DNA of 64,000 bases, from contig JACRIT010000085.1 in the NCBI GenBank assembly GCA_016215655.1, forward strand, positions 39,007 to 103,006, in the 5' to 3' direction. The notes beneath the pieces are model-generated. The model was not told where the DNA came from. It searched no databases and saw only the letters and a list, made by a program, of their open reading frames with translations. The position numbers and the translations under genes are program-made. Of this stretch, positions 1 through 51,423 are shown one piece after another (within the stretch, counting starts at the first letter, position 1; each line of letters begins with the position of its first letter). This DNA comes from Acidimicrobiia bacterium. Its GTDB lineage: Bacteria > Actinomycetota > Acidimicrobiia > Spongiisociales > UBA11373.

Positions 1-1710
1 AATGGAGGATGTGGGTCCCGGTGTGGCTCTTGCGAATGCGTTCCCGACGACCGGCGTCGACCGACAGCATCGCCCGCTGGCCGACGGCGATCTTCCCGGA
101 TTCGATGGAGCCCTTGTGGCCGTGGAGACCGGCCACCGGCAACTGGGTATCCGTGATGCGGACGGTCCCGGTCTCCGTCGTCGCGCTCCCGGTATCGCCG
201 ATCTGACCACCGGACTCCCCATAGAACGTGGTTCCGGCGAAGAACACCTCGACCTCCGCTCCCGCAGGAGCCTCGCGCACGAGCTCCCCGTCGCGGATGA
301 TGGCGAGCACTTCGGCGTCGAGATCGAGTTGCTCGTAGCCGAGGAACGGGGTGGCACCGTGGGCGTCGAGGATCGACCGATACAACGGCGAGCCCTCGGC
401 TGCGCCGGGCTTGGCACGAGCCGCTCGCCCTCGCTCGCGTTGTGCTGCCATCTCGGCATCGAAGCCGTCCCGATCGACGGTCAACCCGCGCTCGGCGGCG
501 ATCTCTTCGGTCAACTCCACCGGAAACCCGAAGGTATCGTGCAGCTTGAACGCGGTCGGGCCGGCGAGGACACCGCCGGCGTCCATGCCCTCGAGTTCCG
601 AGGCGAGCAGGGTGTGCCCGGATTCGAGGGTGCGGCGGAATCGCAGCTCCTCGCGCTCGGCCATCTCGACGATGCCATCGCGGCCCGACCGCAGCGCGGG
701 ATAGCCGGGCGACATCACCTCGATGGTGGCATCCACCAGGTACGGCGTCACCGGGCGCTCCGCGCCGAGCTGCCAGGCATGTCGCACCGCCCGGCGCAGC
801 AGTCGCCGCAGGATGTAGCCGCGGCCTTCGTTCGAAGGCACCACGCCATCGGCGATGAGGAATGTCAGCGCCCGGCCGTGGTCGGCGAGGATGCGGAGGC
901 TGACGTCACCTGCCGCGGACGTGCCGAACGCCACCCCGGTGGCCGCCTCACCCGCGGCGAGCACGGGGTGCAGGAGATCGGTGGCGAACACGTTGTCGAC
1001 GCCCTGGGTGAGCACCGCCACCCGCTCCAACCCCGACCCGGTGTCGATCGACTTGGCCGGAAGATCGCCCACGACGTGATAGGGGACGTCCTGCACGTAC
1101 TGCATGAAGACCAGGTTCCAGAACTCCATGAACCGCTCTTCGTCGGCCACGGGTCCGCCGTCGACCCCGAACTCCGGTCCGCGGTCGTAGAAGAGCTCGG
1201 AGCAGGGACCCGCCGGGCCCGCCACCCCCATCTGCCAGAAGTTGTCCCGGTCGCGCCGCTGCACCCGGTTGGCCGGCACACCCACCTTGTCGATCCAGAT
1301 CTCCGCCGCGTCATCGTCGCTGTGGTGCACGGTGAACCACAGTCGTTCGGGGTCGAAGCCGAGGACCTCGGTGGAGAACTCGTATGCCCAGGGAATCGCC
1401 CGTTCCTTGAAGTAGTCGCCGAAGGAGAAGTTCCCCAGCATCTCGAAGAACGAGAGGTGCCGCGCCGTGGTGCCGACGATGTCGATGTCCACGGTGCGGA
1501 TGCACTTCTGCGACGTCGTGGCCCGCGGGTACGGGGCGGGCTCGTCGCCGAGGAGGTAGGGCTTGAAGGGCACCATCCCCGCCACGGTGAGCAGCAGGGT
1601 CGGGTCCACGGGGATCAGCGACGCCGACGGCACGACGGTATGGGCACGCGCCGCGAAGAACTCGAGGTAGGCCTTGCGGATCTCGGCGCCGCCGATGGGA
1701 TGGCTCGACA
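1..1710 (-). CDS. alaS: alanine--tRNA ligase, N-terminal ~570 aa (3-prime end beyond window start)
   Basis: Manual minus-strand translation from ATG (revcomp cat at 1708-1710): MSSHPIGGAEIRKAYLEFFAARAHTVVPSASLIPVDPTLLLTVAGMVPFKPY...TSQKCIRTVDIDIVGTTARHLSFFEMLGNFSFGDYFKERAIPWAYEF..., which are class II AlaRS catalytic-core motifs. Absent from the ORF track because no stop occurs inside the window. The long plus-strand ORF 2..2209 is its antisense. Confidence 0.85.
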
Positions 1711-1751
1711 TCGAGCGGAGAGTACCGGAGTCGGGACTCACCGCCCCCCGA

Positions 1752-3077
1752 TCAGCGCCGGCGACCCATCCGGCGATCGATCTCGGCGAGACGCTCGGCG
1801 AGAGCCGCTTCGGCACCGGTGGTGCCCGGACGGAAGAGCACCCGGTCTCGGGCGGCGTCCGGAAGGTACTGCTGCGGCGCGATGCCGTCGGGATGATCGT
1901 GGGGATACACGTATCCCACTCCGTGGCCGAGCTTCTCGGCGCCGCGGTAGCCCGTGGAGCGCAGGTGGGGAGGCACGACCGCAGCCGGAGTCTCGGCCAC
2001 CGCGGCCGAGGCTGCCGCCATGGTGCGCCCTATGGTGTTCGACTTCGGCGCCGTGGCCAGATAGAGGGTGGCGTGGTAGAGGGCGTACCCGGCCTCGGGG
2101 AGCCCGACGAACTGGAGGGCCTGCGAGGCCGCCACCGCCACCTGGAGACCCCGGCTGTCGCCGAGCCCGACGTCCTCGGAGGCGAGGATCACGAGGCGTC
2201 GGGCGATGAACTCGGGGTCCTCACCGGCGGCGAGCATCACCTGGAGCCAGTAGGCGGCGGCATCGGGATCCGATCCCCGCACGCTCTTGATGAACGCCGA
2301 GATCACGTCGAAGTGCTGGTCACCTGCCCGGTCGTAGCGGATGATGCGGCGCTGCAGCGCTTCCTCGACCGCGGGGACGTCGACCACGTCCGATCCGCGA
2401 CCGGCGGCGATGAGCGCGGCGACTTCGAGGGCGTTCAGCGCGAGACGGGCGTCGCCACCCGAGCGCTCTCCCAGCAGGGCGCGCGCCTCGGGGGTGATGC
2501 CGGGCGGCTCACCGATTCCTCGCTCGTCGGCAAAGGCGCGATCCACGAGCGCCTCGACCTCTGCGGGCAGAAGCGACTCGAGCCGGAACAGGGTGCTGCG
2601 CGAGATGAGCGGAGAGTTCACCTCGAAGAAGGGATTCTCGGTGGTGGCGCCCACCAGGATCACGATCCCGGTTTCGACTCCGGGGAGCAGGGCATCCTGC
2701 TGCGCCTTCGAGAACCGGTGGATCTCGTCGAGGAAGAGGACGGTGCGACGCTCGTCCTGCTCCAGCCGTTGGGTTGCCGCGGCGAGGACGTCGCGCACGT
2801 CCTTCACCCCGGCACTCGTGGCCGAGAGCGATGCAAAGGCCGCCTGGCTCGCCGAGGCCACCAGACCGGCCAGGGTGGTCTTGCCGGTCCCGGGCGGCCC
2901 CCACAGGATCATCGACACGGGCCGGCCGGCTCGCACCATCTCCCCAAAGGCCGCTCCCGGAGCGAGGAGGTGGCGCTGGCCCACGACCTCATCGAGGGTG
3001 CGAGGGCGCAGGCGGGCGGCGAGTGGTTCGGCGGACCGGCGATGGGCTGCGCGCTCTCCGGAGAACAGGTCGTCCAT
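1752..3077 (-). CDS. rarA: replication-associated recombination protein A (AAA+ ATPase)
   Basis: 441 aa; Walker A ILWGPPGTGKTTLA, VLFLDEIHRF, and the C-terminal MgsA/RarA helical domain (YDRAGDQHFDVISAFIKSVRGSDPDAA). Immediately upstream of alaS, as in other actinobacteria. Confidence 0.9.
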   Translation of the reverse strand: MDDLFSGERAAHRRSAEPLAARLRPRTLDEVVGQRHLLAPGAAFGEMVRAGRPVSMILWGPPGTGKTTLAGLVASASQAAFASLSATSAGVKDVRDVLAAATQRLEQDERRTVLFLDEIHRFSKAQQDALLPGVETGIVILVGATTENPFFEVNSPLISRSTLFRLESLLPAEVEALVDRAFADERGIGEPPGITPEARALLGERSGGDARLALNALEVAALIAAGRGSDVVDVPAVEEALQRRIIRYDRAGDQHFDVISAFIKSVRGSDPDAAAYWLQVMLAAGEDPEFIARRLVILASEDVGLGDSRGLQVAVAASQALQFVGLPEAGYALYHATLYLATAPKSNTIGRTMAAASAAVAETPAAVVPPHLRSTGYRGAEKLGHGVGYVYPHDHPDGIAPQQYLPDAARDRVLFRPGTTGAEAALAERLAEIDRRMGRRR

Positions 3078-4863
3078 CAGGTTGGGGTCGGCTCCCCCGC
3101 CAGGGACTCGCGCACGTCGGGGCGGAGGTCGATGCCGAGCTCCTGGAGCTGGAACTCGTCGACGAGACTCGGCGAGTCGGTCATGGGGTCGTAGCCGGTC
3201 TGGGTCTTGGGAAACGGCATGACCTCACGAATGTTCGGCTCGTTCTGCAGCACCATGACGAATCGATCGAGGCCGACGGCGAAGCCGGCGTGAGGCGGGG
3301 TGCCATAGCGCAGCGCCCGCATGAACCAGCCGAAGCGCGACTCGGCCTCCCGGTCGGAGATGCCGAGCACCGAGAAGACCTCGCGCTGCACCCGGGGATC
3401 GTGGATCCGCTCGCTTCCCGAACCCAGCTCGACCCCGTTGACGACGAGGTCATAGGCGCGAGACAGGGCGTGCTCGGGGTCGTCGCGCATCTCCTCCACT
3501 CGGTACGGGGCCGTGAACGGGTGGTGTTCCGGAGCGAGGCTGCCGTCTTCGCCCACCGAGAACACCGGGAAGTCGATCACCCAGAGGAACTCCAGGCGAT
3601 CATGGCCGGTGGGGCGCCCCAGGTCGATCCGCAGGGCCCCGAGGACCGTCCGGGTCACCTTCGGCCGATCCGCCACCACGAGCAGCAGATCGCCCCGCCC
3701 GGCGCCGAGCGCCCGCGTCACCGCCGCCAACTCCTCGGGGGTGAGGTGCTTGGCGACCGGCGAACGCACCGATCCGTCGGCCTCGACCACCATCCAGACG
3801 AGGCCCTTGGCCCCGAGGCCCTTGGCGCGCTCGACGAACCCGTCGAGTACCGACCGCGACACCTCGCGGGCTCCGGCATTGATGCCGGCGACGATCCCCC
3901 CGGAAGCGAGGGCCCCGGCGAACATCTGGAATCCGGTGCCGGCGAAGGCCTCGCCCAGGTCGACGATCTCCATGCCGAAGCGCAGGTCGGGCTTGTCCGT
4001 GCCAAAGCGCCGCATCGCCTCGGCGTGGGTCATCCGGGGGAAGGGCGTCGTCAGTTCCACACCGCGCAGCTCCCGGGTGACGGCCACGATCACCGGCTCG
4101 AGTGCGGCGAACACCCCCTCGCGATCCCAGAACGAGCCTTCGATGTCCAACTGGGTGAACTCGATCTGACGATCCGACCGAAAATCCTCGTCGCGGTAGC
4201 ACCGAGCGATCTGGTAGTAGCGCTCCACACCCCCGACCATGAGCAGCTGCTTGAAGAGCTGCGGCGACTGCGGCAGGGCGTAGAACGAGCCCTGGCGGAG
4301 CCGGCTCGGCACCAGGACATCGCGGGCACCTTCGGGTGTGGACTTCACCAGAGTCGGCGTGTCCACCTCCAAGAAGCCCTGGGCGAGCATCGTCGTCCGC
4401 ATCGCCCCGATCGCCTTCGAGCGTGCCACGAGATTGGCGGCCATGCGGGGACGGCGCAGGTCGAGATAGCGGTACTCGAGGCGGCGGTTCTCGTCGACGT
4501 CCGCACGGTCGTCGATGCGGAACGGCAGCGGATCCGACGGCGACAGCACCATCACCTCGGCCGCGGCGACCTCGACCGCGCCACTGGGGAGTTCCGGGTT
4601 CACCGTGCCCGGCGGCCGCTGTCGTACGAGACCACCCACGGCGATGCAGAACTCGTCGCGCAGTTCCCTGCCCAGCTCGGCGGCGGCCGGGTTCAGCACC
4701 GGGTCCACCACCACCTGCACGATTCCCGAAGCGTCACGGAGGTCGACGAACAGCACGCCGCCGTGGTCGCGGATCGTGGCCACCCAGCCGGCCAACCGGA
4801 CCTCGCGTCCGGCGTCGGACTCGCGCAACTCCCCGGCTCGCGCCGTCCTCAACGGTGCAGCCA
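3077..4863 (-). CDS. aspS: aspartate--tRNA ligase
   Basis: ORF 3077..4942; GWVATIRDHGGVLFVDLRD anticodon-binding OB motif, class II core, GGSERIHDP. Likely GTG start at 4863 (VAAPLRTARAGELR...), since the upstream 26 codons are non-conserved. Its stop overlaps the rarA ATG (TGATG). Confidence 0.9.
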
Positions 4864-6072
4864 CGCCACGGCCTCCTCGATGTCCATCGTCACTTCCTCG
4901 CCTGTAGCCATCGACTTCACCCGCACCTCGCCACGCTCCCACTCGTCACCGATGACGGCGACGGCGGCAGCACCACTGCGGTCTGCCGCCTTGAATTGCG
5001 ACTTCAACGACCGATCGCCGCCCGCCCAGTCCACTCGCAGGCCCTCGGCCCGCAGTCGCCGCACCCAACTCGAGGCGACATCCTCGCGTGCCGCGCCGGC
5101 GACGGCGACGAAGACGTCGAGCCGGGGCGATTCGAGATCGGGCATGGCGGCCACGATGCGGTCACAACCCATCGCCACCCCGACTCCCGGCACCGGGAGA
5201 CGGCTCCCGATGAGTTCGCCGAGCGGGTCGTAGCGCCCTCCGCCGCCGAGCGACGACTGCGCGGCCTCGAAGGCCGGGGAGAACACCTCGAACACGGTCC
5301 GGTTGTAGTAGTCCAGGCCCCGTACCAGCCGGGGAGCGATCTCGTAGCCGATGCCCGCCGCATCCAGCCCGGAGCGGACCGCGGCGAAGTGCGCCGCGGT
5401 CTCGGCACCGAGATGATCGAGCGGAACGGGAGCCGCCGCCACGACGTCTTTGTCCACCTTGGAATCGAGCACTCGCAGCGGGTTGTCATCCATGCGCCGC
5501 CGCGAATCCGGCGAAAGCTCGTTGGCGACACCATGGAGGAAGTCGCGCAGGAGATCGCGGTAGGTGGCGCGATCCGAGGCGTCACCGATCGAGTTGAGGT
5601 GCACGGTGATGCCGGGGACCCCGGCCTCGGCGAGCAGCCGATGCGACATCTCGATGACCTCGATGTCGGCGCGGGGACCGGGCTCTCCGAGATACTCCAG
5701 GTCGACCTGGTGGAACTGCCGGCGGCGGCCCTTCTGCGGCTGCTCGTAGCGGAACTGCGGTCCGGACGCGGCCACCTTCATCACCCCGGTGCCGCCGGCC
5801 TCGACATAGGCGCGCACGATCCCGGCGGTGAACTCGGGCCGGAGGGTCACCGAGCGCCCCCCGCGGTCCTCGAAGGTGTACATCTGCTTCTGGACGACCT
5901 CGGTGTCCGCGCCGACACCGCGGGCGAAGAGCTCCGTGGCCTCGAGCACCGGCATGAGCACGAGGTCGTACCCGTAGCGCGCCGCGAGGTCGTCGAAGCC
6001 GCGCAGCAGCCTCCGCCACCGGGCAGATTCCGGAGGCAGGATGTCGTCGGTGCCCTTGAGCCGAGGGATCAC
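4849..6072 (-). CDS. hisS: histidine--tRNA ligase
   Basis: Conserved HisRS sequence from VIPRLKGTDDILPPES onward (class II motifs, RPEFTAGIVRAYVE, GGGRYD). GTG start at 6072 overlaps the stop of the upstream MBL hydrolase as GTGA (translational coupling). The ORF-track N-terminal extension to 6432 overlaps the MBL gene and is not coding for HisS. Confidence 0.9.
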   Translation of the reverse strand: MIPRLKGTDDILPPESARWRRLLRGFDDLAARYGYDLVLMPVLEATELFARGVGADTEVVQKQMYTFEDRGGRSVTLRPEFTAGIVRAYVEAGGTGVMKVAASGPQFRYEQPQKGRRRQFHQVDLEYLGEPGPRADIEVIEMSHRLLAEAGVPGITVHLNSIGDASDRATYRDLLRDFLHGVANELSPDSRRRMDDNPLRVLDSKVDKDVVAAAPVPLDHLGAETAAHFAAVRSGLDAAGIGYEIAPRLVRGLDYYNRTVFEVFSPAFEAAQSSLGGGGRYDPLGELIGSRLPVPGVGVAMGCDRIVAAMPDLESPRLDVFVAVAGAAREDVASSWVRRLRAEGLRVDWAGGDRSLKSQFKAADRSGAAAVAVIGDEWERGEVRVKSMATGEEVTMDIEEAVAWLHR

Positions 6073-44292: not shown

Positions 44293-44880
44293 TCAGCTTC
44301 CGAGCTGCCGGATGACGTCGGCAATGCGTTTCGCCCTGGTCTCGGGACGCTTGGCGATGCGCACCGCCCACAGATGCTGCTTCTTGGCGGAGTCGGGCAA
44401 TCCCGCAAAGGCGGCCTGAGCCGCCGGTGAGGCCGAGAGGGCGGCCTCGAGATCGGCGGGAATGATCAGCGAGTCGACCTCATCGGTCTGCGACCACGAA
44501 CCGTCCGCCTGGGCCTGGTCGATCACCGCCTGGCCGATTGCGGTCATCAGCCCCTCCTCCTGCAATCGGGCAATGCGCGACTTGTTCGACGCCGACCAGA
44601 GACCGCCCTTGCGTCGCGGAGAGAACCACTGGATCTTGCGGTCGTCGTCCACCCGGCGGGACTGACTGTCGATCCACCCGAAGCACAGCGCCTCCTCCAC
44701 CAGATCGTCATACAGAGGGCCCTCGAGGGCGCTCGACTTCTTGCGGTGGACGATCCACAGGCCTTCCTTCCGCCCGGAGTTGGACATGAGCCAGCTCCTC
44801 CACTCGGCCCGGGTCGAGGGGGTGAACACCTCCTTGCCGTTGGGCGACGCGGGCGGTGCCAGGTCGGCTGTTCTGGCCAC
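44293..44880 (-). CDS. YdeI/OmpD-associated family protein
   Basis: WRSWLMSNSGRKEGLWIVHRKK...EEALCFGWIDSQSRRVDDDRKIQWFSPRRKGGLWSASNKSRIARL. Confidence 0.8.
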   Translation of the reverse strand: MARTADLAPPASPNGKEVFTPSTRAEWRSWLMSNSGRKEGLWIVHRKKSSALEGPLYDDLVEEALCFGWIDSQSRRVDDDRKIQWFSPRRKGGLWSASNKSRIARLQEEGLMTAIGQAVIDQAQADGSWSQTDEVDSLIIPADLEAALSASPAAQAAFAGLPDSAKKQHLWAVRIAKRPETRAKRIADVIRQLGS

Positions 44881-44960: not shown

Positions 44961-45428
44961 TCAGGGTCCGCCTTCGATCCAGCTGCGGTCCGAGCGCGCC
45001 AGTCGACTCGCGATCGCCTCCCAGCGCGCTTCGTCGAGCAGGATCGGACTGGCGAACTGCATGTTGCCGAAGATGAACGGTTTGCGGCCGCGAAACGCCC
45101 GGTCCCGGCGCAGGTCGTCGCCGGGTACCCACCGGCGCAGAGGGCGGACCTTCCAGGGCACGAAGGCATGCCGGTCCGCCGCCGAGCGAATCGCGCTTCC
45201 CCGGATGCGGGCGACGGCGACGATGTTGCCCCACCCGCCATCGAACTGGAACACCGCGGCACGATCCCCTAGCCCGATCCGATCCGCATGATGGAAGACC
45301 GATGTGCGGTCGCGCAGCCGGTCCAACAGGATGTCGTATCCCCGGGTCTCCGGGTGGCCCCGATAGTCGTAGGTCCAGTTCGGGTTCTTGGGGTTGTTGC
45401 CGAACAGGTAGAAGTCCGTCACCACCAA
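44961..45428 (-). CDS. hypothetical protein (155 aa; PUA/EVE-like fold suspected, unverified)
   Basis: High GC3 and typical codon usage; no motif I can assign with confidence. Confidence 0.5.
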   Translation of the reverse strand: MVVTDFYLFGNNPKNPNWTYDYRGHPETRGYDILLDRLRDRTSVFHHADRIGLGDRAAVFQFDGGWGNIVAVARIRGSAIRSAADRHAFVPWKVRPLRRWVPGDDLRRDRAFRGRKPFIFGNMQFASPILLDEARWEAIASRLARSDRSWIEGGP

Positions 45429-45521: not shown

Positions 45522-47090
45522 TCAGCCGCTCGTCGCCACCTCGGCCGCGCGGAAGCGGAAGTACGACCACGTGATCGCGGTCACGGTGGCATATGCCCCC
45601 GCCAGCGCCAGCACCACCACCACTCCGGTCTCGCCGAACGCATCTCCGTACTCACCGTGGGGATTGATGAGCAGGTGGAAGAACAGGTAGGTGGACACGC
45701 CGAACAGCGCCAGCCACGCCGCACGGTTCCACTCGACGATCGACCGGCCGTCCATGAACGTGAGGGGGACCATGTTGTACATGACGCCTTCGATGCCCCC
45801 GACGAAGAGCACCGCAAGCACTCCCTCGGCGAGGTCACTGCCCCACCCTTCGCCCCCGCCGGAGCGCACCACCCCGAGACCGAACCACGCCACGATGCCG
45901 AGACCGAGGAGCGCCAGTGCCGGATAGAAGGCGGAGCGTCCCGACTGCGCCCGATCGAGCGCCTGCGGCACGAGGATCGCCGTGGACGCCACGAACCCAT
46001 AGACGATGCCCGGCTCGAATTCGAGGGCGCGAGTCACGATCACACAGCCGATGGCGGCGAAGAGGGCAACGGTGTGGACGCGGACCGCGGCGGGCAACCC
46101 GAGTCTGCGCCGGGCGAACCAGGCAGCCCCTCCCTCGCCCACGAGGGTCAGCACGCCCAATCCGGCCATGAGTGAGACGAACAACACCGCACTCGCCCGA
46201 TTGAGCCCGAATCCGGGGCTGAGAAACCCGTACACGCCGCCGGTGAGGACGAGCAGGACACCGGCTCGTACCGCCACCGGAATGGATCCGGTGAACCAAC
46301 TCCCCCACCGCGCCACCCGGCCGCGGACGCCCCGCCACCACCCCTCGATCGTGTCCCGATTCGACTCGAGGGTGCTGTTGAACACGGCCGAGGTCACTCC
46401 GAAGATCAGCAGCAGGAGCAGGGTGAGCATCAGATTGGTGAGGATCACCCCCAGCGACGACTTCACCTTGTCGGGACCGGGAGTGGTGGCGATGAACCCG
46501 CCGCCGGGACCGCCCGCCCCCGGGGACTCCTGTGGCGCCAGCACCTGTGGCGCGGTGGTCGTCGTGATCGGCACCGGCAGGGTGGTGGTGGTCGGTACCG
46601 TCGTCGGGGCCGTGGCCGGAGCAGGTTCGGAGAGCTTCGGAGGCAGGACCGGGGGCAGGGTCGTCGTCGTCGTGGTGGTCGTCGTGGTCGTCGTGGTCGT
46701 GGTCGTCGGAGGGGCAGGATCGATGGTGTAGCCGGCAGATGCCTGCTGACACGGACCGAATGGCGTACACATGCGGGCGTACACCATGTGCCGCCCGAGA
46801 GGCGCGCCACCGGGAGTCGGAGCGGTGGCCGAACCGGTGCACGACACGCCGTCCATGGTCGCCGAGGCATAGGCAGGGTTCGTCGGACTGTCCCAGTGGA
46901 AGGTGACCGTGGCTCCACCGTTGAAACACTCGGGTCCGCTCTGCGAGAAGAAGGAGGCGGTGAAGGAGACCCCGGCAGGACCGTGGTTGGGAGTCAGGGT
47001 CAGCGAGTTCGCCGCCCCGGCAGAGGGCGCGACGATCAGCACCATCGCCACGCAGGCGACCACGGCGAGGACCCTCCCGACCCGCGACAT
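45522..47090 (-). CDS. secreted Cys-containing domain plus T16-PP linker plus polytopic membrane domain protein
   Basis: Signal peptide MSRVGRVLAVVACVAMVLIVAPSAGA|ANS, ~110-aa domain with 6 Cys, 16 consecutive Thr then Pro-rich segments, ~8 C-terminal TM helices; GAGGAGGG RBS before ATG 47090. Confidence 0.6.
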   Translation of the reverse strand: MSRVGRVLAVVACVAMVLIVAPSAGAANSLTLTPNHGPAGVSFTASFFSQSGPECFNGGATVTFHWDSPTNPAYASATMDGVSCTGSATAPTPGGAPLGRHMVYARMCTPFGPCQQASAGYTIDPAPPTTTTTTTTTTTTTTTTLPPVLPPKLSEPAPATAPTTVPTTTTLPVPITTTTAPQVLAPQESPGAGGPGGGFIATTPGPDKVKSSLGVILTNLMLTLLLLLIFGVTSAVFNSTLESNRDTIEGWWRGVRGRVARWGSWFTGSIPVAVRAGVLLVLTGGVYGFLSPGFGLNRASAVLFVSLMAGLGVLTLVGEGGAAWFARRRLGLPAAVRVHTVALFAAIGCVIVTRALEFEPGIVYGFVASTAILVPQALDRAQSGRSAFYPALALLGLGIVAWFGLGVVRSGGGEGWGSDLAEGVLAVLFVGGIEGVMYNMVPLTFMDGRSIVEWNRAAWLALFGVSTYLFFHLLINPHGEYGDAFGETGVVVVLALAGAYATVTAITWSYFRFRAAEVATSG

Positions 47091-47201
47091 GTCCCTCCTC
47101 GGACGAAGCTGGCGCCCCCAACCCCGAGGATGGTACGCGACCCGCCACCTGCACGCGGACACCCCGGTCCGCTATCTTCTCGCCCCGAACGAGGAGGCGG
47201 G

Positions 47202-47657
47202 ATGTCCAAGGTCGAGCTGTACACACTCATTCACGTGCTGGCCGCCATCATCTGGGTGGGCGGCGCGGCCACGTCACAGGTGGTGGCCTTGCGGCTGAAG
47301 AAGGCGGATCCCGGCCATCGCCTCGGGTTCGCCAAGGACATGCGGTTCGTGGCGCAGTGGCTCTTCATCCCGTCGGCGGTCGTCGCCTTCGTGTTCGGCT
47401 CGCTCCTCGTGGAAGAGACACCCGCCTTCGGATACGACCAGACCTGGCTCGTGATCGGCAACACCGGGCTCCTGGTGGCGCTGCTCATCGCCGCCGGATA
47501 CCTGGTGCCGCACATCCGCAAGGCCATTCGACTCATGGAGTCGGGTCAGGGGGAGGCAGCAGGCGCCACGATGCGCCGAGTGACGGTCGGCGCCCGCCTC
47601 GTCGTGCTCATCCTGATCGTGATCGTGTGGGCAATGGTCGCAAAGCCGGGCCTGTAG
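47202..47657 (+). CDS. DUF2269-like 4-TM membrane protein (paralogue 1)
   Basis: MSKVELYTLIHVLAAIIWVGGAATSQVV...; AGGAGG RBS. Confidence 0.6.
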   Translation: MSKVELYTLIHVLAAIIWVGGAATSQVVALRLKKADPGHRLGFAKDMRFVAQWLFIPSAVVAFVFGSLLVEETPAFGYDQTWLVIGNTGLLVALLIAAGYLVPHIRKAIRLMESGQGEAAGATMRRVTVGARLVVLILIVIVWAMVAKPGL

Positions 47658-47668
47658 GAGGGAACGCC

Positions 47669-48118
47669 ATGACACTCTTCGAAACCCTGAAGTTGCTCCA
47701 CGTGCTCGCGGCCGCCATCTGGGTGGGTGGCGGAGTCCTGCAGACGACGTACGTGGTGCGGTCGGTCCGCGCGGATGCAGCACACCGGCTCGGCGTCGCC
47801 CGCGACATGGTGTTCCTCGGATCCAAGGTGTTCGGGCCGGTCTCGGGTCTGGCGTTCATCTCCGGGGTATGGATGGTGATCGAACGACCCGCATTCGCCT
47901 TCGGCGACGCCTGGATCGTCATCGGCCTCGCCGGCTTCGCCCTTTCCAGCATCGTGGGCGGCGCGGTCTTCAGCCCCAAGGGGAAGGCACTGCTGGCCGA
48001 ACTCGAGGCCGGCACCTCCGGAGAGGCACCGCTCCGGGCGATCATCCGGGCGGCGTTCGTCGATCAGGCGATCCTGCTCGTGGTGGTCTGGGCGATGGTG
48101 GTCGGGCCCGGGGCCTAG
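47669..48118 (+). CDS. DUF2269-like 4-TM membrane protein (paralogue 2)
   Basis: MTLFETLKLLHVLAAAIWVGGGVLQTTYVV...; about 40% identical to the upstream paralogue, 11-nt spacer. Confidence 0.6.
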   Translation: MTLFETLKLLHVLAAAIWVGGGVLQTTYVVRSVRADAAHRLGVARDMVFLGSKVFGPVSGLAFISGVWMVIERPAFAFGDAWIVIGLAGFALSSIVGGAVFSPKGKALLAELEAGTSGEAPLRAIIRAAFVDQAILLVVVWAMVVGPGA

Positions 48119-48125
48119 GGAAGCC

Positions 48126-49952
48126 TCAGTCCGACGTGTAGAGCGCCTCGATCTCCGCGGCGAAGTGCTCGGTGACCCGGTTGCGCTTCACCTTCAGGGT
48201 CCCGGTCAGCTCGCCACTCTCGATGGACAGCTCGCGGGGCAGGATCGCGAACTTCTTCACCCCGTTCACCTGAGCGACCTTCTTGTTGATCCCGTCGATC
48301 GTCGCCTGGATCTCGCGGCGGATCTCGGGCGAGAGGTGAAGGGGACCGCTCACGTTGTGTCGATCGGCAAATGCCCCGGCCGCCACCGGGTCGAGCGTCA
48401 CCAGGGCCGTGAGGTACTTGCGCCGGTCACCGATCAGCACCGCTTCCGAGACCAGCGGATTCTCCTTGATGCCGGTCTCGATGTCCTTGGGGGCGATGTT
48501 CTTGCCCCCGGCCGTGATGATGATGTCCTTCTTCCGACCCGTGATGAACAGGAACCCGTCCGCATCGAACGTGCCGATGTCGCCGGAGAGCAGCCAGCCG
48601 TCCTTGAGTGTCTCGGCGGTGGCTTCCGGGTTCTTGAAGTAGCCGGCGAACACGTTGCCGCCCTTGAGCAGGACCTCACCGTCCTCGGCGAGCCGCACTT
48701 CGGCGCCCGGGTAGGCGATGCCGACACTGCCGAACTTGGTCTTCCCGGGCCGATTGAACGTCGTCGGCCCAGACCCCTCGGACTGGCCATAGACCTCGAT
48801 GATCGGGAGGTGGAAGCCGGCGAAGAACTCGAGCAACTCGGGGGAGATCGGCGCGGCTCCGGAGATGGCGCCACGCACCCGGTCCATGCCGATGCCCGTC
48901 CTCACCTTCTTGTGCACCACCCCGGCGAGGACCAGCTTGGCGGCAAGGGCCGCCGACGGCTTGCCGCCCCGGTTCTCGATCGCCACGACCTTGCGTCCCA
49001 CCACCTGCGCCCAGGCGGCGAGTTTCGCCTTGACCCCGGTGGCGTGGCCGAGCTCTGCGGCGACCCCGGCGTGGAACTTCTCCCACACCCGGGGAACCGC
49101 AAAGAACACGGTCGGCTTGACCTCCTTGAGGTTGTCGAGGAGAGCCTCGAGAGACTCGGCGAAGTAGATCGGATACCCGATGCTGATCGGGATGTGGACC
49201 GAGAACATCTGCTCGGCGATGTGGCTCAGCGGCAGATACGAGACCGATGAGTCGTCCGAGGTGAGGGGCATGACACCGTAGGAGTTGTCGGCGGTCCACG
49301 TGAGATTGGAGTGGGTGAGCATGACCCCCTTCGGGGGCCCGGTGGTGCCGGAGGTGTAGATGAGGGTCGCCAGCCCACCCGGGGTGAGGGACGCCAGCCG
49401 GGCATCGAATTCGGCATCGGGGACACCGTTGCCCATCGCCAGGAACTCGTCCCAGGTGATGACCTGGGCGTCGTCGATCTCGGGGGCTCCGCGCATGGTG
49501 ACGATCCACTTGAGGGCGGGCAGGTCACGCCGCACCGCCAGGACCTTGTCCAATTGCACCTTGTTCTCGACGAGGATCACCGGTGCCTCGGCGTGACCGG
49601 TGATGTACTGGACTTCCTCGGGCGACGAGGTGGCGTAGATGCCCGCGGGAGCGCCGCCCACCGCCATCGTGGCGAGATCGAGGATCACCCACTCGGGGCG
49701 ATTGAACCCGAGAATGGTCACCTTGGACTCGAACGGGAATCCGACGGCGAGGAGGGCCTTTCCGGCGCGCCGCACCTGGGCGGCGTATTCGGTCCACGAG
49801 GTCGAGCGGTACTCGCCGTCCACCTTCTCGAAGTACGCAGGGCTGCCAGGGCGCTTCTCGGCTTGAGCGAACAACCGGGCGGGAATCGTGTCGGCCACCG
49901 GGACCTCCTCGCAGTCGGCGGCAATCGTACACGGGGGGGTCCTTGTCCCCAC
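48126..49952 (-). CDS. fadD: long-chain fatty-acid--CoA ligase (AMP-dependent synthetase)
   Basis: AMP-binding motif IYTSGTTGPPKGVMLTH, GYGQSE-like motif, C-terminal KVKR...; start may be internal (GTG near VADTIPARLF). Confidence 0.85.
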   Translation of the reverse strand: MGTRTPPCTIAADCEEVPVADTIPARLFAQAEKRPGSPAYFEKVDGEYRSTSWTEYAAQVRRAGKALLAVGFPFESKVTILGFNRPEWVILDLATMAVGGAPAGIYATSSPEEVQYITGHAEAPVILVENKVQLDKVLAVRRDLPALKWIVTMRGAPEIDDAQVITWDEFLAMGNGVPDAEFDARLASLTPGGLATLIYTSGTTGPPKGVMLTHSNLTWTADNSYGVMPLTSDDSSVSYLPLSHIAEQMFSVHIPISIGYPIYFAESLEALLDNLKEVKPTVFFAVPRVWEKFHAGVAAELGHATGVKAKLAAWAQVVGRKVVAIENRGGKPSAALAAKLVLAGVVHKKVRTGIGMDRVRGAISGAAPISPELLEFFAGFHLPIIEVYGQSEGSGPTTFNRPGKTKFGSVGIAYPGAEVRLAEDGEVLLKGGNVFAGYFKNPEATAETLKDGWLLSGDIGTFDADGFLFITGRKKDIIITAGGKNIAPKDIETGIKENPLVSEAVLIGDRRKYLTALVTLDPVAAGAFADRHNVSGPLHLSPEIRREIQATIDGINKKVAQVNGVKKFAILPRELSIESGELTGTLKVKRNRVTEHFAAEIEALYTSD

Positions 49953-50292: not shown

Positions 50293-51423
50293 TCAGGAGC
50301 ACGACACCAACGGCGTCAGATGGAGCACGGCGGCGAGGCGGGCGCGCGTGGCACGACCGACCACGCCGTCCATGAACAGGCCGTTGGCATTCTGGAAGGC
50401 GCGCACGGCTGCCGTGGTCTTCGAACCGAAGATCCCGTCCGCCGCCCCGACATCGAGGCCCACCGCCTTGAGCAAGCCCTGGAGTTCGGCGACATCGCCA
50501 CCGAGCGAGCCCTGGCGCAGCGAGCGTCCGTCGGGATCGAGCACCGATGCCCGGGAGGCGAGCGCCACGAGCTCGGCGACTTCGGCCCGGGTCATGCTCC
50601 CCACGACCCCATCGGAGGCAAGGCTCACCTCGGTCTGGAATCCGCGCACCGCACCGAGAGTCCGCGATCCGAAGATGCCATCGATCGGACCGGGGGCATG
50701 GCGGAAGGCGGCGAGGAACTCCTGCAACTGGCGCACCGCATCGCCGGCCGCGCCCACCTTGATGAGCCCGGAAGTGGAGAGCAGGGTGGTGACATCGCCG
50801 ACCCGGGTGATCCCGCAGTGTGCCCTGCCTTCGGCGGCAAGGAGCGCATCGTGGGGATTCACCAGGACACCTTCGGGGTCGTATAGCTCGAAGTGAAGAT
50901 GGGGTCCCGTGTTCTCGGCGCTGCCGCTGTCTCCCACCCAACCGATGAGATCCCCGGCAGCGACGTGGGTGCCGAGAGCGATCTCGGGTGCGATCCCCCA
51001 GGCGAGGCCGTCGTCGGTGCCGGGAGTGTCGTTGTTGAGGTGGATGTACCACGATTCCCACCCATCGTCGTGGGTGATGACCACCGTGCAGCAGCGTTCG
51101 GGATTGAGGTCGTTGGGATCCTGGCTCCAGTTGATCCAGGTCACGGTTCCCGCAGCCGCGGCCACCACGGGGGTCAGCTTCGCCGCCATGAGATCCTGGG
51201 CGTGGTGCTCACCAACGCCACGCGCCGCCCAGAACCAGTCCTCGTACCAGTACGAACCGACGACGGGAAAGGCGAGCGGGTAGTCGACCATGTCGCCGTA
51301 GGCGTGCGCCGACCCATCGAACGGGGCCTCGTGATTGGCGCTCGCCGGCGCCGCCATGCCGACGACCAACCCGAGCACGACGGCGGTGATGGTCGTCCGT
51401 CCGGAGACGCGGTTCGGTGGCAC
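50293..51423 (-). CDS. secreted M23-family peptidase with three peptidoglycan-binding (PG_binding_1) repeats
   Basis: Signal peptide; HAQDLMAA...GDSGSAENTGPHLHFE (M23 HxxxD / HxH); 3x ~60-aa repeats with GxxGxxVxxLQ and DGIFGSxT. Confidence 0.8.
   Translation of the reverse strand: MPPNRVSGRTTITAVVLGLVVGMAAPASANHEAPFDGSAHAYGDMVDYPLAFPVVGSYWYEDWFWAARGVGEHHAQDLMAAKLTPVVAAAAGTVTWINWSQDPNDLNPERCCTVVITHDDGWESWYIHLNNDTPGTDDGLAWGIAPEIALGTHVAAGDLIGWVGDSGSAENTGPHLHFELYDPEGVLVNPHDALLAAEGRAHCGITRVGDVTTLLSTSGLIKVGAAGDAVRQLQEFLAAFRHAPGPIDGIFGSRTLGAVRGFQTEVSLASDGVVGSMTRAEVAELVALASRASVLDPDGRSLRQGSLGGDVAELQGLLKAVGLDVGAADGIFGSKTTAAVRAFQNANGLFMDGVVGRATRARLAAVLHLTPLVSCS

Follow-up and report, generated by a model that had tools for sequence, protein, structure and literature searches.

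The subject of this analysis is a 522-aa membrane protein encoded in a 64,000-nucleotide stretch of DNA from an Acidimicrobiia bacterium (GenBank assembly GCA_016215655.1, contig JACRIT010000085.1, positions 39,007 to 103,006 of the forward strand), hereafter the window. Here, we report that this protein is a further member of a family already named by NCBI but uncharacterised, NF041501, "FGLLP motif-containing membrane protein" ('cola_mem' in NCBIfam). We consider it, with a probability of roughly 0.6, to be a surface-display protein in which a disulfide-stabilised immunoglobulin (Ig)-like domain is carried on a stalk by a nine-span membrane anchor that is derived from site-2 proteases (S2P, family M50) and is probably non-catalytic. 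Briefly, the Sec signal peptide, recognisable in the sequence, would be removed, and the Ig-like β-sandwich, whose fold is taken from the structural model, would sit on an extended Thr/Pro stalk that keeps it off the membrane. The C-terminal domain of ~320 aa, for which the charge distribution predicts nine spans and an N-out, C-in orientation, would anchor the whole protein. This anchor domain would be a distant relative of the S2P core that has kept the NxxPxxxxDG helix and lost both zinc-binding histidines (HExxH to GEGGA); because both are lost, it is most likely a pseudoprotease, i.e., a non-proteolytic anchor or scaffold.

The original prediction could assign no family to the membrane domain, which does not hold: NF041501 matches with E 2.1e-55 and a score of 187.9 bits, where the cut-off is 150, with residues 204-508 spanning model positions 3-312 of 312, and distant relatives likewise score above the cut-off. 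A Pfam scan of the protein gave no match for the membrane domain, NF041501 has no Pfam counterpart, and a literature search on 'FGLLP' or NF041501 found no relevant paper. The description of the protein as an uncharacterised envelope protein, with exported domain, stalk and polytopic domain, stands. The family is large. When 1.84 billion representatives were searched exhaustively with a profile, 2,764 clusters (50% identity) matched at E <= 1e-3 and 1,486 at E <= 1e-30. In 168 full-domain sequences the FGLLP domain lies nearly always at the extreme C-terminus (median tail 3.5 aa) behind N-terminal regions of 0-1,484 aa; in the window protein, 198 aa precede the domain and none follow. Members with long N-terminal regions carry an N-terminal hydrophobic signal in 108 of 127 cases, and about half have a Thr/Pro/Ser-rich linker. 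The exported parts include DUF11, NHL, SBBP and PD40 propellers, RCC1, FG-GAP, LRR, C-type lectin, esterase and PPC domains. Since the same C-terminal domain sits behind such different exported domains, the membrane module is the constant chassis of the family and the binding-type ectodomain its variable payload.

The motif that gives the family its purely descriptive name lies in the sixth helix and reads Y-N-M-V-P in the window protein. Among 169 members the first position is F in 64%, the second G in 30% or N in 23%, the third M or L in 100%, the fourth I, L or V in 95%, and the fifth P in 100%; given the letters allowed at each position, YNMVP fits the family pattern and not the literal FGLLP. 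The window protein otherwise agrees with NF041501 in covering the full model above the curated cut-off, in the C-terminal position of the domain, and in having P442, G448, G365 and W459. At one locus (L004), two FGLLP-domain genes with differing ectodomains, one of them with a DUF7507 Ig-like match, stand in tandem (1510-3342 and 3417-5270, plus strand) with a Peptidase_A4 gene upstream of the pair. Because of these tandem genes, the family appears to expand via local duplication.

The open reading frame (ORF) of the large protein spans 45522-47162 on the minus strand. Its probable start is the ATG at 47090, since GAGGAGG precedes it by six bases and the closest homologues share the resulting N-terminus, MSRVG; the coding sequence, placed from sequence and homologues, is then 45522..47090 (minus strand, stop TGA at 45522-45524) and encodes 522 aa. 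Full-length homologues are 91% and 77% identical. Public data hold 27 relatives of the large protein (word-indexed search) and 63 of DUF2269-B, one of two DUF2269 genes transcribed divergently from it; because of these homologues the large-protein and DUF2269 ORFs are real genes and not chance frames.

The signal peptide, exported domain, stalk and polytopic C-terminal domain that had been described before are all seen in the sequence. The signal peptide, read from the sequence, is aa 1-26 (47013..47090, minus strand; MSRVGRVLAVVACVAMVLIVAPSAGA), with a likely signal peptidase I site between AGA and AN. We rejected the view that VVAC (aa 10-13) marks a lipoprotein, since its Cys lies too near the N-terminus and the signal peptide of the homologue P0003 has no Cys. 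The Ig-like β-sandwich ectodomain follows at aa 27-125 (46716..47012, minus strand). The six Cys earlier credited to the extracellular domain are the total of the whole protein; C13 falls within the signal peptide and C349 within a membrane helix, leaving four (C55, C84, C108, C114) in the mature ectodomain. Only C55 and C84 are invariant among relatives; C108 is nearly so, and C114 is found in 6 of 10.

The Thr/Pro-rich stalk is aa 126-198 (46497..46715, minus strand). It includes the run of exactly 16 Thr that had been noted together with Pro-rich spacers (aa 129-144, DNA 46659-46706 on the minus strand, mixed ACG and ACC codons), and its composition is 29 Thr and 17 Pro per 80 residues; please note that this sample was taken over aa 126-205, whereas the boundary of the stalk is placed at aa 198. 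Sequence and length of the stalk vary between close relatives: the Thr run is 16 long in the window protein, interrupted in P0001 and 11 long in P0002. In the DNA the run is an imperfect ACG/ACC trinucleotide array with 82% matches, and because of this array slippage may alter the length of the stalk. Its O-glycosylation, i.e., by actinobacterial Pmt-type O-mannosylation, is a guess from its composition. The remainder, aa 199-522 (45525..46496, minus strand), is the FGLLP-motif membrane domain, supported by the NCBIfam hidden Markov model, the AlphaFold model and the charge topology.

This domain had been described as 8-TM (eight transmembrane segments). The eight strongly hydrophobic segments, which are also predicted helices, are indeed there, but the number of spans is probably nine, as there is a further conserved hydrophobic segment at aa 361-377. 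The family mean of Lys plus Arg per loop alternates as 5.9, 0.3, 2.4, 1.1, 2.0, 0.9, 2.8 and 0.9, and we take aa 361-377 as a membrane span because this alternation, i.e., the positive-inside rule, holds only then. The protein would thus probably cross the membrane nine times, starting outside and ending inside the cell, and from this topology it follows that the remnants of both S2P motifs would face the cytoplasm, which is also where genuine S2Ps have them. In this region lies PGIVYGF (aa 360-366; 45993..46013, minus strand), either the most conserved loop of the domain or part of the extra span. The stretch aa 360-377 (45960-46013), with the pattern PGxxYGF, is the most conserved of the domain and its only part with a predicted local distance difference test score (pLDDT) below 50; G365 is present in 99% of the family.

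The fold search, the Pfam M50 matches below threshold and a profile comparison that exceeds its shuffled controls agree in indicating a distant S2P-like core. The AlphaFold model of the membrane domain (aa 199-522) has a pLDDT of 81.6 and a predicted TM-score (pTM) of 0.83. Foldseek searches of the PDB with this model gave no significant match (best E 0.16); both the top probability (0.72) and the top TM-score belong to 3b4r, the S2P of M. jannaschii, and the TM-scores to that structure are 0.24 and 0.34. The window protein itself does not match Pfam PF02163 (Peptidase_M50) at E <= 10. Its relatives give sub-threshold Peptidase_M50 matches, at E 1.2e-4 (17 sequences scanned), 6e-4 (P0020) and 1.7e-5 (68 scanned), and the best score among them, 19.7 bits, does not reach the cut-off of 27.2. 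A PDB sequence search with a 17-sequence profile found no relevant match and no S2P, and when three RseP sequences, confirmed to be identical to the PDB chains, were compared with the 17-sequence alignment in hhalign, there was no signal (probability 0.1%). With the 169-sequence profile the comparison with RseP scored 23.4 (E 0.019 for a single comparison), at an hh-suite probability of only 2.5%. Two kinds of shuffle controls, keeping composition and segment structure, scored 14.1 +/- 2.3 and 15.3 +/- 1.9; none of 200 reached 23.4, and the reversed alignment scored 13.2.

The alignment is collinear across the two helices that carry the S2P motifs. The window TLVGEGGAAWFARRRLG is aligned to RseP ITVHEFGHFWVARRCG in the HExxH helix, where GEGGA (aa 318-322; 46125..46139, minus strand), at the cytoplasmic end of TM3, aligns with RseP HEFGH by both hhalign and hmmsearch. 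In the NxxPxxxxDG helix, the window YNMVPLTFMDG is aligned to RseP INLFPLPVLDGG. The FGLLP motif region proper, NMVPLTFMDG (aa 439-448; 45747..45776, minus strand), matches the S2P pattern NxxPxxxxDG and was also aligned to Aquifex RseP FNLIPLPILDGG (NLIPLPILDG); the spacing N439-x-x-P442-x-x-x-x-D447-G448 is identical to that of the S2P motif.

One may object that such a likeness is coincidental, produced by the geometry of a helical bundle and a short Pro/Gly motif, and that the domain is an independent fold, e.g., a channel, a transporter or a lipid-facing enzyme. The non-significant Foldseek result with its low TM-scores to 3b4r, the hh-suite probability of 2.5%, the family profile that recovers no S2P among PDB sequences, and a span number of eight or nine, when known S2P cores have four to six, all speak for this objection. 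It is countered by the two motif helices, whose alignment preserves both their order and their side of the membrane, and we hold coincidence to be fairly unlikely. A distant relationship of the FGLLP domain to the S2P core is, to our judgment, likely; only relatedness is claimed, and not M50 membership, because the defining HExxH and the Pfam threshold both fail. Compared with M. jannaschii S2P (3B4R) and RseP (7W6X, 7W6Z, 9J83), the FGLLP domain shares NxxPxxxxDG with identical spacing and the predicted cytoplasmic position of both motifs, but it has neither His of HExxH, it has about nine spans to their four to six, and it stands behind exported ectodomains where S2Ps carry PDZ or CBS domains. 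As for other membrane families, a CAAX/CPBP protease or an ABC-2 permease, either of which would have spoken against the original prediction, found no sequence or fold match with the membrane domain.

The former zinc site is degenerate across the family. In the HExxH-equivalent segment, position 318 is Y, F, S, N or G, position 319 is Glu in 54%, and position 322 is Q, E or A, His not being among the residues listed at 318 and 322. None of the 169 family sequences' columns is a conserved His; the highest reaches 61% (H472) and lies away from the HExxH position. The motif Asp, which is the third zinc ligand in S2Ps, corresponds to D447, which is Asp in 79%, Glu in 7% and Pro, Asn, Ala or Ser in about 12% of the family, and E434 is Glu in 85% and Gln in 11%. 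The near-invariant residues are P442 (100%), G448, G365 and W459 (99% each), and N238, R354 and V350 (96% each). Since the structural motif residues are kept while the ligand positions drift, the pattern is the one expected of a pseudoenzyme. A comparable case is EGY3 of plant chloroplasts, an S2P homologue without the zinc-binding motif that is regarded as a non-proteolytic pseudoprotease and described as plant-specific (PMC9355673). The degeneration proposed for the FGLLP domain is of the same kind, an S2P-like domain with its zinc-binding motif lost; EGY3, in contrast, is described as confined to plants and has neither an exported ectodomain nor a stalk, and the two are likened by description, not by sequence.

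The same residues can be read in another way, in which the FGLLP domain would be a working intramembrane hydrolase of a non-canonical type, with N238, E319, E434 and D447 in place of the His-His-Asp zinc site, acting on other membrane proteins or on its own stalk to shed the ectodomain. NxxPxxxxDG is kept, with D447 conserved as given above; N238 is Asn in 96%, E434 mostly Glu, the window protein and 54% of the family retain the Glu of HExxH, all three acidic residues (at the positions of E319, E434 and D447) occur together in 89 of 169 members, and the nine-span topology would place both motifs on the cytoplasmic side, where S2Ps have theirs. Against this, no candidate catalytic residue is invariant (compare the Gln at position 434 and the Pro, Asn, Ala or Ser at position 447), and no His is conserved. 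The losses of the acidic residues are mutually uncorrelated among the 169 members, and for this reason we rejected a division of the family into one active and one inactive branch. We know of no intramembrane protease that uses a carboxylate/amide site of that kind. An active hydrolase is therefore improbable in our opinion, and we retain a pseudoprotease-type anchor as the preferred reading of the membrane domain.

The original prediction had further proposed that the large protein forms a functional module with two divergently transcribed DUF2269 genes, perhaps for envelope sensing or transport. In its fuller form, this would be an envelope sensor, redox or transport unit made of the FGLLP protein and the DUF2269 proteins under a shared divergent control region. 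The divergent arrangement of the FGLLP gene and the DUF2269 pair was found in five loci that form one syntenic clade (the window, L001, L002, L003 and L013), with FGLLP proteins 77% (L001, an Acidimicrobiia metagenome-assembled genome), 63% (L002) and 54% (L003) identical to that of the window, and parts of the intergenic region are conserved, both of which favour a joint unit. But those loci also share the gene order of the window for the acyl-CoA synthetase gene and, in L013, for the M23 peptidase gene; because these are syntenic too, we read the linkage of the FGLLP gene and the DUF2269 pair as block or general synteny. No DUF2269 neighbours were found beside the FGLLP genes of L008 and L010, whose proteins share the Ig-like ectodomain and are 48% and 43% identical, and none in five more distant contexts (L004, L005 from Chloroflexi, L006, L007 and the contig of P0017). 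Conversely, DUF2269 genes at 38% and 32% identity stand singly without an FGLLP gene (L014, L015), and the one in L014 is still beside an acyl-CoA synthetase gene. Because this neighbour recurs in L014 at 38% identity, the adjacency of the acyl-CoA synthetase gene and DUF2269 seems to persist further than that of the FGLLP gene and DUF2269. A scan for related loci with the large protein as single query returned one close contig from a metagenome-assembled genome only, and a metagenome scan with DUF2269-B returned two loci that each end just upstream of the pair and are uninformative for the linkage. The adjacency is thus confined to five loci of one clade, it is missing at all other FGLLP loci examined, and the DUF2269 genes are not co-conserved with the large gene beyond that clade; nothing was found pointing to a transport role, and this analysis found no evidence for a sensor role. 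A joint unit is, in our view, quite improbable, and the DUF2269 genes are probably a separate unit kept beside the large gene by local synteny.

Two points weigh against the surface-display reading with its separate DUF2269 unit. First, in L003 and L013 a gene for a DUF2269-cytochrome c fusion lies directly 3' of the FGLLP gene on the same strand, at a distance of 49 bp and 18 bp, respectively. This arrangement, which counts in favour of a joint unit, goes further than the pair by itself and might point to a functional link within this clade, although the window has no such fusion gene. Second, it is not obvious why a passive anchor should require nine spans together with near-invariant N238, R354, G365, P442, G448 and W459. 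Because several residues are so strongly conserved, the alignment suggests a further activity or a partner of the module beyond anchoring.

The intergenic region between the divergent genes is 111 bp long (47091..47201, unstranded) and, as predicted, has ribosome-binding sites of the AGGAGG type on both sides, GAGGAGG before the large gene and before DUF2269-A. It contains an inverted repeat, GCGGAC-N6-GTCCGC (47155-47172), whose distance upstream of DUF2269-A is about 30 nt. In L001-L003 the intergenic region is conserved in part, with GATAG in three of four loci, an invariant CCGCG, and TAnnAT-like boxes facing each gene; a promoter scan of 47091-47201 found no sigma-70 consensus site.

The two DUF2269-like paralogues were also described correctly, as proteins of four transmembrane segments encoded 11 nt apart. 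DUF2269-A (47202..47657, plus strand; 151 aa; ribosome-binding site GAGGAGG) and DUF2269-B (47669..48118, plus strand; 149 aa; TAGGAGG) are 38% identical (E 2e-30), and the HVLAAxIWVGG motif is in each. Against Pfam PF10027 (cut-off 28), B passes with 39.0 bits and A, at 27.5, is short by 0.5 bit; the orthologue of A in L003 has an unmarked PF10027 match, and that in L002 only a weak one. A, but not B, also matches UPF0093/HemJ (PF03653), at E 2e-5 and 25.3 bits, under the cut-off of 34.2. A and its orthologues share 60-72% identity (L002 72%, L003 60%) and B and its orthologues 58-74%, against about 40% between A and B; because each has its own orthologues in the relatives, the duplication is old and the pair maintained. 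Invariant in 68 DUF2269 sequences are His11 in the first transmembrane segment, Gly66, Met143 in the fourth and Pro147.

A literature search on DUF2269 found two passing mentions only. HemJ is a dimeric b-type haem protein (PMC13564367), and DUF989 of the cytochrome c urate oxidase PuuD has distant similarity to DUF2269 (PMC4562309). A and B resemble the DUF2269, HemJ and DUF989 proteins in having four transmembrane segments in ~150 aa and an invariant His in the first segment, with relatives fused to cytochrome c. They differ in that A falls just under the PF10027 cut-off, both are below the HemJ cut-off, and the two form a conserved pair. The fusion genes of L003 (6640-7434, plus strand) and L013 (3008-3757, minus strand) encode a third DUF2269 domain, a poly-Thr/Pro linker and a CxxCH cytochrome c domain, the Pfam matches to DUF2269 and Cytochrom_C both being above cut-off. 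From these features, the DUF2269 pair probably binds haem or copper, perhaps as an A/B heterodimer.

The flanking genes were recorded as well. DUF2269-B and the acyl-CoA synthetase gene are convergent, with 7 bp between their stop codons (window 48118-48126), and in L014 (6001-8273) the DUF2269 gene (38% identity) is likewise convergent with an acyl-CoA synthetase gene. A protein of ~665 aa with an AhpC-TSA/thioredoxin-like domain and NHL repeats is encoded between DUF2269-B and the acyl-CoA synthetase in L002 (1950-3962), L003 (1986-3983) and L013 (6449-8446), and not there in the window and L001. On the other side, the FGLLP gene is separated from a YdeI/OmdA-family gene (44293-44880) by a 155-aa ORF without Pfam or NCBIfam match (44961-45428, minus strand); this ORF and the YdeI/OmdA-family gene are both missing at this place in L001, where a pyridine nucleotide-disulphide oxidoreductase gene is directly next. 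The M23 peptidase of the window (50293-51423, minus strand), syntenic with that of L013, has two PG_binding_1 domains and an N-terminal signal-like segment.

For the family, a bolder proposal can be made, which we regard as tentative and rather doubtful at present: the FGLLP module is a true S2P derivative that has lost its zinc site and, instead of anchoring passively, forms the conserved part through which a widespread class of surface receptors delivers its output. If so, interchangeable ectodomains (Ig-like, LRR, lectin, β-propeller) on a stalk would be coupled to a single membrane module able to bind or gate other membrane proteins, in a layout that recalls adhesion receptors, and to our knowledge no large family of S2P pseudoproteases would have been known from prokaryotes before. 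The invariant His and Met of the DUF2269 proteins, together with the cytochrome c fusions, offer a testable lead to a haem- or copper-linked function. The family is of more interest than the single gene, as it comprises thousands of clusters with varied exported domains, and it would help those who annotate metagenomes to identify surface proteins of a kind common in Actinomycetota and Chloroflexota. For research on intramembrane proteolysis, its likely descent from S2Ps with loss of the zinc site would make it a bacterial counterpart to the plant EGY3 and the iRhom pseudoproteases.

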